DNA of 63,985 nucleotides, filler included, from Perkinsus olseni (Eukaryota): assembly GCA_013115125.1 (NCBI GenBank). It is 3 parts of 3 records of this genome, joined end to end, with 100 filler letters (N's around TTAATTAATTAA, not from the genome) between each part and the next. Parts side by side here need not be neighbours in the genome. Positions count along the whole stretch, not along the records: positions 23,384 to 46,508 come from JABANN010000524.1; 2 more parts are not named here. The stretch is one strand, 5' to 3'. The notes under the pieces are model-generated. The model saw only the letters and a program-made list of their open reading frames with translations, was not told the origin of the DNA and did no database searches. The translations under genes and the position numbers were made by a program. Below are positions 26,633-29,259 of the stretch, piece by piece (positions within the stretch are counted from its first letter, which is position 1; each line of letters begins with the position of its first letter).

Positions 26633-29259
26633 TCAGTCACCCCCATTAGAGCCACTATCATCACTGGAAGACGACGACGATCCATACCCTCCCAATGCCG
26701 TGCCGAGACTCACAGGAGCAGGGGGAGCTGAGCAGGAGCAAGACGATACGGACCTCTTTTGGATAGTCGGTGCCGGGGATCGAACCCGGGACCTCAGGCT
26801 TACCCTCAGCAGCTGGAGTGGCCTTCGCCTTCTTCTTAGCTTTGAATATCATATGAGGCATCGCCGCCTTCCGCTTGGCCGCTGCCGCCTCGACCTCATC
26901 GGCAATGTGGACAGGAGGCGGCGGGGGAGAGGAGGACGACTAGGCGAAAAAATTGACATGAAGACAGCGGAGCGACGCATCCCACATCCTTGACTGATGG
27001 GGTTGACTTGGTCTTATTCCCCTCAGTCGATCCTTCCCCTTCCTCATCATCGGAGATCACCTCGATGCGCTCCCATTCCAGATTCCCCTTGAAGACGGCT
27101 TCCGCAACGGCGGTATCTAAGTGGCGGCTATCGACGATGGAACGCTTCTCAGGAGAGGAGTGGCTGAGAAGACTGAGAATTTTCTCAACTCAGCATACCA
27201 CAACTTTCCCAATAAATCCTCGTAAGGTGGGAAGTTGTTCTATCTACTCTAACGCTCGGGCGACCTCAGTACCAAGATCGCCCGCATCCAGCGGACCTCT
27301 AGCGTTGTTGGGTCGACATAGGTATCACTTTGATTGAATACTTCAGTCCAAGAGAGGGACCCATACCCGGAACACCAGCTCAACTACGAACAGCGTCCGA
27401 GAACAATCCTGCCATCGAAATTAGACACAGATTCCTGTGTAGCCATACTCGTCAGCAACAGGATCGTATAAGGACCATCTCAAGAAGGTGATTTCTATAA
27501 TCGACGGCTTGACCATGATCGATCGATCATCGATGATGATGATCATCGATCGATTATCGATGTTTGAGAGCAGTCTCATACTTCCCCAGTTGACCCCCGC
27601 CCCCACCTTTGTCATCGGCGCCCTGCTCGTGGTCACCCTCCCCTTCCTGCTTCACACCAGCAGCACCTTCCTCCTTCTTCTCCCCTTTAACGGCGGACGA
27701 CGAGCTGCTCCCTCCCGCGACGTCTCCGTCGAACAACTTGTCCAAAGCTGACGAGATCAGCTGGTCCCGTTGGGCTTGCCTGATACACATTTCCCGCCGG
27801 TATTCTAGCACCGTTGCCTCTCCATCAGATGAAGGAGTCAAGATACTCAACGGCAGGTGTATTCGGCAAGGAAGTATCATGAGGGGATGAGATACGATCT
27901 CTATGCCATAGAAGCACCCCCAGAGCCTCTCAACAGAATTACGTCCCAACCCTCTACGAAGACACCAGCACGCCCTCCCCTGGACAAGCGATTAGTGAAC
28001 CAAAGAAGCACCTCGGCTGTCCCCAACGGATTCTATCACCTGCGATTGACAGCCTTGAGTTCATCCAACTCGTCCAATCGTCGCATCTCCTCGGCGGTAT
28101 CATAAATCCTATTCTCCATAGCCTTGGTCTCGGATTCTGACACCTCTAGCTCTATCCCAGCATCACCAACGTAACACCTACCATTCTCCTCTCCTGTCTT
28201 GCGATGAGAGACCTCCGCCTCCGCGAAATCAGCATCCTTGAAGCCCTCGTACCTGATGACCAGATGATGTTCACTCATCTCCACCCCGGTGGCCCCTCGG
28301 CAGGACTTGCAGCTCTCGCAAGAAGTTCGGAATTTCCGAGTGCTGCTCATTCTCAACCAATCGTCCTTCACGCTTCATCGTATTTATGCGCACTATTTGC
28401 CCCCTCCGACAGAGGCTTTACATCTGTTTTCCCCATTCACGACAGTGACCAAGCGGTAGGAGTGGCGAGGGTGACGTGGAAAAATAGGAAACCTACGTTC
28501 TCGTTCCCCCTGTTTCAAGTACGTAGTCAGAGTGCTCAGGATCCGTGCGAAATGAGAACTCGCCTGAGGAAGCAAAAGGAATCTTAGGTTGATCCATGCG
28601 CGATACAAGTATGCCCTACCTAGACAATGTTTGCATTTGCCGTAGAAGCGATACACATTCAGCCCCAAAGAACTCTTCTCCGGCAGTTTTTGACACCTAA
28701 AAACGACGTTGCCAGGGATCGATCCGGCGACCTTTCGATTACCTGCTATTGAACTTAGTAGCAATGTACAGGTACTCCCCACAGTGACTGCAGCACATCG
28801 AAAAGGGAAGCATCATTCGGATGTTCATACATTTCGGACCTGACAAAGCGCCAACCAGTGGATTCAAAATCGCAGCTAGAGGTGTCAGAATACGACGACC
28901 CGCCCTTCAGTGCATTGCAATAAGTTGATCTCCGAAATTAATTGGCGAATTTCAATTACGTTATTTTATCATTTTCTGTTTCTTATCAAAATTCTCATAA
29001 TTTCATCACGGAATTTCGGTCGACGCTCACAGTTTTCGGTGTATCACCATCACAGCAAAGCATAGCGTCTTAATAGATCAGGTTCAATCTCCGAGTAGCG
29101 GAGGCGAAATAAATTTTTCAGATTATTTTCCAAATTAATCAGGAGTACTGTATCACCTCTTTGCTCGACCCTGGGCTTCTTGACCATCCTCATCGGCAGG
29201 AGCTTCGACGGGTCGAAGTCCGGCGGGTAGTACTTGTTCATCACCTTACGCTCAGTCAT
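26633..29259 (-). CDS. YJU2: Splicing factor YJU2/CWC16 (CCDC94), multi-exon
   Basis: MTERKVMNKYYPPDFDPSK, IRMMLPFSMCCSHCGEYLYIATKFNSR, YRFYGKCKHC, FRTDPEHSDY, MENRIYDTAEEMRRLDELDELK. Ends LGGYGSSSSSSDDSGSNGGD*, an acidic Ser-rich tail typical of the family. Confidence 0.92.
26765..26803 (-). pseudogene. tRNA 3'-half fragment (positions 35-73, Thr-like) forming the 5' end of the last YJU2 intron
   Basis: GT AA GCCTG AGGTC CCGGG TTCGATC CCCGG CACCGAC T gives a perfect T-arm and correct tRNA spacing. No 5' half nearby. Confidence 0.75.
28697..28742 (-). pseudogene. 46-nt YJU2 intron made of a degenerate tRNA 3' half plus TTTTTAG
   Basis: GT AA TCGAA AGGTC GCCGG ATCGATC CCTGG CAACGTC G TTTTT AG. 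Splicing restores KFNSR-CQK. Confidence 0.6.

Follow-up and report, generated by a model that had tools for sequence, protein, structure and literature searches.

Intron 2 of the YJU2/CCDC94 gene of Perkinsus olseni (GenBank assembly GCA_013115125.1) is 46 nt long and, on balance, is most likely the decayed 3' half of a tRNA gene that works as a spliceosomal intron and belongs to a small dispersed family. The gene lies in a window of 63,985 nt, the whole stretch of DNA that was analysed, and all coordinates count along this window. An earlier inspection of the sequence (the original prediction) had proposed that the whole intron is a tRNA 3' half whose oligo-T terminator now serves as polypyrimidine tract, and that two such cases in one gene, itself encoding a splicing factor, suggest a repeated process. 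The favoured reading is carried by the exact register of the tRNA likeness, by a better-preserved tRNA 3' half with which the last YJU2 intron begins and by related sequences at other places in the genome.

The intron and its host gene

The gene and the parts that surround the intron are as follows.

26633..29259, minus strand: YJU2/CCDC94 gene, 10 exons and 9 introns, from RNA joints, protein alignment and translation
28743..28839, minus strand: exon 2 (…IRMMLPFSMCCSHCGEYLYIATKFNS-R), with AG at its 3' end before the 46-nt intron, from a PF04502 match (E=4.2e-9) and RNA joints
28697..28742, minus strand: GT-AG spliceosomal intron of 46 nt, YJU2 intron 2, codon 67, phase 2, from RNA joints and the 348-aa translation
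28697..28703, minus strand: T5 run and AG of the 3' splice site, right after 'position 73' of the tRNA-like part, read from the sequence
28620..28696, minus strand: exon 3 (CQKLPEKSSLGLNVYRFYGKCKHCL), with GT at its 5' start, from RNA joints, Pfam and translation

Three sets of RNA or RNA-like contigs (X7, X8 and X18) and one DNA set (X1) were aligned over 27500-29400. Read on the minus strand from 28742 to 28697, the intron is GTAATCGAAAGGTCGCCGGATCGATCCCTGGCAACGTCGTTTTTAG, letter for letter as originally given. Exactly these 46 nt are skipped in RNA contigs of all three sets, with CT..AC ends on the plus strand, and the DNA set is without the skip (0 of 1). The intron divides codon 67 as AG|G, and the joined exons read ...KFNSR|CQKLPEK..., a junction that is invariant in all four aligned Perkinsus proteins. 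By its borders, its removal from RNA and the conserved frame restored by this removal, the element is an ordinary working U2-type GT-AG intron of Perkinsus YJU2. The motif AGGT, the same as the splice consensus, is found at both borders, and no inverted ends are visible within the 46 nt. The T5 run in front of the terminal AG probably acts as polypyrimidine tract.

The role of the host gene as a splicing factor was likewise borne out. Its exon translations match the Saf4/Yju2 family PF04502, and the nine-intron model encodes a protein of 348 aa that is identical to P0121, annotated as Perkinsus olseni CCDC94/YJU2. From 5' to 3' the introns measure 317, 46, 56, 244, 45, 260, 490, 46 and 76 nt. 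RNA joints are available for six of them (317, 46, 56, 244, 45 and 260 nt), the 490-nt intron is defined by a loose RNA contig end at 27607 that maps to 27087-27116, and the last two, of 46 nt (26985..26940) and 76 nt (26803..26728), were placed by the conserved C-terminus of P. olseni, P. marinus and P. chesapeaki proteins.

Likeness to a tRNA 3' half

The first 39 nt of the intron can be laid out as GU-AA, TCGAA, AGGTC, GCCGG, ATCGATC, CCTGG, CAACGTC and G. In tRNA numbering, GT falls on nt 35-36 and AA on nt 37-38, AGGTC takes the place of the variable loop and ATCGATC is T-loop-like. This layout was scored with a mini-model built from 17 distinct class-I tRNA 3' halves of 40 nt, found by ARAGORN in eight regions of Escherichia coli K-12, which combines a position matrix for unpaired positions with a pair model for the T-stem. 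Real tRNAs obtain 24.9-35.6 bits in this model, or 21.4-34.8 bits when each is left out in turn, against a window background with a mean of -30.8 and a standard deviation (sd) of 9.2 over 127,334 positions. The same 17 halves were used as an nhmmer profile. The tRNA-like features on which the argument is based are listed below.

28704..28742, minus strand: 39-nt core of the 46-nt intron, like a tRNA 3' half (nt 35-73), with 13.6 bits in the mini-model and E=0.11 in nhmmer
26728..26803, minus strand: last YJU2 intron, 76 nt, beginning with GTAAGCCTGAGGTCCCGGGTTCGATCCCCGGCACCGACT, with borders from protein alignment only
24699..24738, minus strand: copy of the 39-mer of the last intron in a segmental duplication, 37 of 40 positions identical
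31784..31823, plus strand: third independent tRNA fragment, with the T-arm CCGGG-TTCGAAT-CCCGG and an acceptor-like strand followed by AAATTTTT, with 22.4 bits in the mini-model and E=0.017 in nhmmer

At the register of nt 35-73, as claimed originally, the 46-nt intron ranks fourth among all 127,334 window positions; the three positions above it are the other tRNA-like fragments, and below it follow positions with 11.3 and 10.6 bits. None of 20,000 shuffles of the intron interior reached its score. This rank and these shuffles indicate that the likeness is more than chance. The best register places nt 35 exactly on nt 1 of the intron, and nhmmer, which reports the intron as the fifth of 18 window-wide matches (9.1 bits), sets profile position 3 on 28741 and thereby arrives at the same alignment. 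The score is gained at A37, A38, the AGGTC variable loop, T55, C56, G57, A58 and the G53-C61 pair, and is lost at the A in position 54 and at the oppositions 49-65 (G-G) and 51-63 (C-T). The seven YJU2 introns that are not tRNA-like score between -0.7 and -20.4 at their best registers.

Among 113 metagenome loci with the core motif AAGGTCGCNGGNTCGATCCCNG, 22 are bona fide tRNAs, which represent ten amino-acid identities. Since the pattern was derived from the intron itself, these loci demonstrate compatibility only and were kept out of the statistics. The metagenome scan turned up no Perkinsus copies; 91 of the 113 loci are without an ARAGORN tRNA and share one repeat, ...ACAAATCGGAAGGTCGCTGGTTCGATCCCAGCTGGTGTCA..., which seems to be a dispersed repeat, derived from tRNA, of an organism other than Perkinsus. 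A search of the window with a 5'-half profile returned nothing and missed even the real tRNA-Ser, so that this profile is without power.

What is probably the 'other intron' of the original prediction was found in the same register at the start of the last YJU2 intron, and it is the better tRNA 3' half of the two. Its first 39 nt (26803..26765) are near-perfect, with the T-arm CCGGG-TTCGATC-CCCGG and a perfect 5-bp T-stem. Including one exon base, 26804..26765 reads GTAAGCCTG-AGGTC-CCGGG-TTCGATC-CCCGG-CACCGAC-T, again with GT at nt 35-36. The mini-model gives 29.6 bits, inside the range of real tRNAs, nhmmer gives E=7e-5, and the sequence alone is assigned by Rfam to the tRNA clan via the tRNA-like domain of tmRNA (12.1 bits, E=7.2e-4). 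Two cases in one gene are thus present, but in the second the tRNA-like 39 nt fill just the 5' half of a 76-nt intron and not the whole of it.

The two introns can also be compared directly. When the 39-mer of the last intron with its one exon base was slid along both strands of the window, the best matches were the sequence itself (40), its duplicate (37) and then the 46-nt intron (29 of 40) in the same register, over a background of 10.1 +/- 2.8 in which only four positions reach 24 or more. Among 136 pairs of E. coli halves only two reach 29, both with 34-35 matches. Over nt 39-73 the two tRNA-like introns share 24 of 35 nucleotides, compared to a mean of 19.8 (sd 2.9) between different tRNA species; this value stands at the top of the different-species range, so that the two introns are as alike as two tRNAs. 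They are also the only YJU2 introns that begin with GTAA, the other six RNA-confirmed introns beginning with GTGATA, GTAGGG, GTAGGT, GTAGGT, GTGATA and GTGGGG.

The duplicate of the last-intron sequence is part of a segmental duplication of the YJU2 3' end (24379-24759 versus 26453-26825, 92% over 384 nt), beyond which collinear matches of lower strength follow. As there are N-runs at a distance of about 1 kb (23283-23383), the duplication may be an assembly artefact. The third fragment (31784-31823) is without a 5' half and is located outside YJU2, upstream of a pseudouridine-synthase-like open reading frame (29729-31531). The fragments that outscore the 46-nt intron received no ARAGORN call and were not reported in the Rfam scan of the whole window. 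The sole tRNA gene in the window is a tRNA-Ser(GCT) at 63750-63831 (ARAGORN and Rfam), whose trailer TTGCTTGTTTGT has no run of four or more T. A weak partial match to the 3'-half profile was also seen at 41632-41652 on the plus strand (nhmmer E=0.073), where AATCCTTGGGTCGCAGGTTCC ends in the T-loop.

Relatives elsewhere in the genome

Relatives of the 46-nt intron were drawn from the DNA set X1, possibly the source of the window itself, where they are known by the borders of their matches and by 30-letter consensus strings of the loose ends. One X1 contig spans the whole stretch 27500-29400, and at least six others match only around the 46-nt intron. Six such contigs (records 3-8) are 3.4-14.5 kb long and have single-copy depths of 82-125 compared to 84 for the home contig. 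Their matches run from 28700, 28708, 28710 and, in three contigs, 28712 to 28743, with 4, 1, 4, 4, 2 and 2 differences, respectively. They are 32-44 nt long, and every one of them starts at the exon-intron border, that is, at the 5' splice site. Upstream of 28742/28743 their loose ends do not agree with one another (agreement 0.61-0.63), and consequently the relatives are neither copies of YJU2 nor a set of identical tRNA genes. Downstream of 28712 on the minus strand, two of the contigs continue with 8 nt, T6, AG and GT, the layout of the 46-nt intron (agreement 0.73).

Other explanations of these matches were considered. Complete tRNA genes are ruled out by the discordant upstream flanks, with the reservation that a single relative could still be a true tRNA gene. 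Paralogues or alleles of YJU2 are ruled out by the exons, which have no additional contigs and a flat depth of 83.9. Inside the window, a 31-mer of the intron with up to three mismatches found only itself, and blastn-short gave nothing longer than 13 nt. An introner family has been defined as at least four similar introns in unrelated genes, according to one survey (PMC9860276); in number, the similar copies at unrelated loci on six contigs exceed this figure, and some of them may be polyploid alleles. The repeated process that the original prediction had suggested is therefore backed by relatives, possibly introns themselves, with the same starting base on at least six contigs.

Repeated sequences were also observed in other introns of YJU2. 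In the 56-nt intron, which is not tRNA-like, 28578-28613 (minus strand) has at least one genomic relative of 36 nt with 5 differences, and the depth suggests more. An exact 18-nt inverted repeat is formed by 28134-28151 and 28874-28891 (ATTCTGACACCTCTAGCT and its complement), one copy lying over the 3' end of the 45-nt intron and 3 exon bases, the other within the 317-nt intron; 28873-28892 is matched by several other genomic contigs. Short YJU2 introns in general may be part of small sequence families.

Evidence against a tRNA origin

A number of results weigh against descent from a tRNA gene, among them the covariance search with RF00005 that the original prediction had named as its own check. 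Four Rfam searches were performed, with a 1.3-kb region, with 61 nt, with the 46 nt alone (5'-truncated matches allowed) and with the whole window, and at E<=10 none of them gave a match of the intron to RF00005 or clan CL00001, not even a truncated one; the gathering threshold of RF00005 is 29 bits. In a control, 46 nt that contain a genuine tRNA 3' half, taken from a tRNA-Thr(TGT) of a metagenome locus, yielded a 5'-truncated RF00005 match of 20.0 bits (E=0.013), which shows that the set-up has power. The intron is estimated to fall at least about 10 bits short of this control, i.e. under about 10 bits, and the cut at E<=10, being spread over 4227 families, excludes only p below about 0.002 for the single tRNA family. 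The proposal that the whole intron is a tRNA 3' half is supported in part, by the above-chance register but not by a match to the tRNA family.

The intron itself shows further departures from a tRNA. ARAGORN makes no call at this place, and the 5' half of the cloverleaf is missing, a conserved coding exon standing upstream instead. The T-stem is degenerate, as had been pointed out originally, with two of five pairs broken (49-65 and 51-63), and position 54 carries A in place of T54. The mini-model score lies well under the leave-one-out range of real tRNAs, and the nhmmer E-value is marginal by itself. The predicted RNA fold is not better than that of shuffles (z=-0.12; with flanks z=0.49), and a shifted hairpin with an 8-nt loop pairs, whereas the 5-bp T-stem does not. 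By eye, GUUUUU and AAAAAC could pair into a hairpin across the 3' splice site, but the predicted fold does not contain it.

The setting of the intron and of its relatives adds to these points. GUAA, the T-run and AG are required for splicing in any case, and 46 nt is a usual size for the short introns of YJU2 (45, 46, 46 and 56 nt). No donor tRNA was found in the window, to which this search was confined and in which tRNA-Ser(GCT) is the only tRNA gene. Three of the six relatives end exactly at the end of the T-stem, and the acceptor-like 8-mer is variable, which would be odd for copies of one tRNA. The relatives, known by their match borders and loose-end strings, are candidate introns with a putative tRNA likeness of their own.

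A possible route from tRNA gene to intron

If the 46-nt intron does descend from a tRNA gene, the source fragment would have extended from anticodon nt 35 to the discriminator and included a T-run. The GU-AA of the anticodon loop (nt 35-38, as in an NGU threonine anticodon followed by A37 and A38) would then have provided the 5' splice site GUAAU, and the T-run with AG the pyrimidine tract and 3' splice site. The fragment would lie between an AG and a GT of the host exon, so that the frame is recovered once it is precisely removed. Copies may have arisen when tRNA-gene fragments were captured at breaks and the spliceable ones selected, or introns may have been copied from other introns.

The original idea that the T-run is a former Pol III terminator fared less well and is at present a conjecture. 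The other 46-nt intron (26985..26940) has no tRNA likeness and likewise carries a T6 run close to its 3' end, and the tRNA-Ser(GCT) of the window is not followed by such a run. It is conceivable, and at the same time rather doubtful, that Perkinsus has whole families of mini-introns of about 46 nt from tRNA 3' halves, which use GUAA and the Pol III terminator as splice sites and were repeatedly copied into AG|GT sites, twice in YJU2.

Alternative explanations

The 46-nt intron and its genomic relatives could also belong to a family of short introns, mobile or copied (introner-like elements or one end of a small transposon), that has no tRNA ancestry and owes its T-arm look to the near-palindromic core GCCGGATCGATCCCTGGC. 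Such a family would agree with the sharp 5' border of the relatives at the splice site and their unrelated flanks, with AGGT on either border of the intron and with the failure of Rfam to see a tRNA. The word GGATCGATCC forms a perfect palindrome, and there are many GATC/ATCGAT repeats close by, e.g. at 27500-27560. Two short introns without tRNA likeness, moreover, also contain parts with genomic relatives (28578-28613; the 18-mer at 28134-28151/28874-28891). The AGGTC variable loop, A37 A38 and the exact 35-73 spacing, however, lie outside the palindrome and yet add to the score; the closest window match belongs, by Rfam's own assignment, to the tRNA clan; and the 46 nt lack visible terminal inverted repeats. 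An origin of this kind is considered unlikely, if worth keeping in mind. The stretch 27500-27560, inside the 490-nt intron, is a GATC/ATCGAT-rich simple repeat, and its palindromic word is also the core of the T-loop-like part.

An ordinary old intron with a coincidental tRNA likeness, whose matches to other contigs are unrelated short repeats, is quite improbable. It would account for the negative Rfam result and the marginal nhmmer value, and the needs of splicing together with the usual length of YJU2 introns would explain GUAA, the T-run and the 46 nt. It does not account for the fourth rank in the window and the 20,000 unsuccessful shuffles, nor for the 29 of 40 matches to the last intron, about 6.8 sd over background. 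Coincidence is equally hard to reconcile with the matches of 32-44 nt with 1-4 differences on six contigs, the best of which (35 of 36) has an estimated chance far below 1e-6 in a 42-Mb assembly.

A functional tRNA-like module that is retained in introns, either as a B-box/TFIIIC site or as a T-arm hairpin that is cut by tRNA-processing enzymes and releases a small RNA, appears very improbable. The 46-nt intron contains the B-box-like sequence GGATCGATCCC, and the module is found at the same place in two introns of YJU2. The duplicated last intron has kept its T-arm and acceptor part unchanged over 33 nt in a duplication of 92% overall identity, but zero changes in 33 nt are expected about 7% of the time at this identity (estimate). 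The broken T-stem, the loss of T54 and the absence of surplus folding stability (z=-0.12) in the 46-nt intron also speak against a retained function.

Two further candidates were considered. In Perkinsus the spliced-leader (SL) donor is 'Gguag' and would be preceded by the SL exon (PMC3101222); an SL RNA intron half is ruled out as origin by the coding exon that stands upstream of the 46-nt intron in place of an SL exon. tRNA halves left by insertions of Dada transposons are not favoured, since Dada targets the D-arm (TAGCTC; PMC3706591), and the flanks would be alike.

Relation to known systems

The origin of new spliceosomal introns is an open question; they are known to come from transposon-like introners, from captured DNA and from exon sequence that was intronised. 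Intron gain by DNA capture at breaks is exemplified by a mitochondrial-DNA intron and by new Daphnia introns with short direct repeats. The 46-nt intron resembles these cases as a short unrelated fragment between AG and GT with the 4-nt direct repeat AGGT at its borders. In contrast to them, the same kind of fragment recurs in YJU2 and in the genome, always from the same tRNA position.

tRNA-derived short interspersed elements (SINEs) have heads that retain the 5' tRNA part with the A and B boxes, and in addition possess a body and a tail. Such SINEs, or fragments of tRNA pseudogenes, share with the intron the tRNA likeness, a B-box-like T-loop, dispersed copies and a T-run behind them. The SINEs differ from the intron, where only nt 35-73 are present, without an A box, where an exon stands upstream and where the piece corresponds exactly to the intron. 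Compared to the tRNA family RF00005 itself, the intron has the AGGTC variable loop, G53, T55, C56, G57, A58, C61 and the spacing to 'position 73' in common. It departs from the family in the missing 5' half, cloverleaf, model match and T54 and in the two broken pairs of the T-stem.

Introners, multi-copy intron-generating elements, are known in other alveolates such as Amoebophrya (PMC7789003; Gozashti et al. 2022, PMC9860276). Like introners, the Perkinsus sequences are similar at unrelated places of one genome, have their border of similarity at the splice site and AG|GT flanks that are indistinguishable from a target-site duplication, and occur in an aquatic, alveolate lineage. Unlike introners, the Perkinsus element is a tRNA-like sequence of 46 nt in which terminal inverted repeats are not visible, and its relatives, candidate introns, were found on just six or more contigs. 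The words 'Perkinsus', 'tRNA' and 'SINE' do not appear in the main texts of the two large introner surveys, and their supplements may still mention them. In a literature search, no paper was found that joins introners with tRNA-derived sequence or describes Perkinsus introners, and a search on intron gain and tRNA halves returned only unrelated papers.

Other features of the window

The partial P. olseni entry P0123 has 25 additional residues at the 244-nt YJU2 intron (28253-28496, minus strand), and a low-depth RNA contig (X7, 28223-28523) spans this intron unspliced. Both observations suggest that the intron is spliced alternatively or incompletely, or that the annotations differ. An HSP90 open reading frame at 16909-18828 is 100% identical to P. 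olseni HSP90 over 640 aa. At 23283-23383 and 46508-46608 there are paired blocks of 44 N, four in all, which are assembly gaps or masked stretches.

Significance for intron gain in Perkinsus

The relatives of the 46-nt intron hint that fragments of tRNA genes have become introns repeatedly in Perkinsus, a parasite of molluscs. Should the family turn out to be small or not derived from tRNA, it would remain a curiosity of one gene. If such tRNA-derived families are real, no smaller intron-generating elements would be known, and none before them would have been made from half a tRNA gene. A tRNA 3' half would then be a very simple, ready-made source of introns, which could be spliced as soon as it lands because it begins with GUAA and ends in a T-run. 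In Perkinsus marinus, tRNA genes number in the hundreds and fall into few, unusually large families, and tRNA-targeting Dada transposons are present (PMC3706591). Intron gain would then also be linked with the tRNA gene families of Perkinsus, which are unusually large and unstable.

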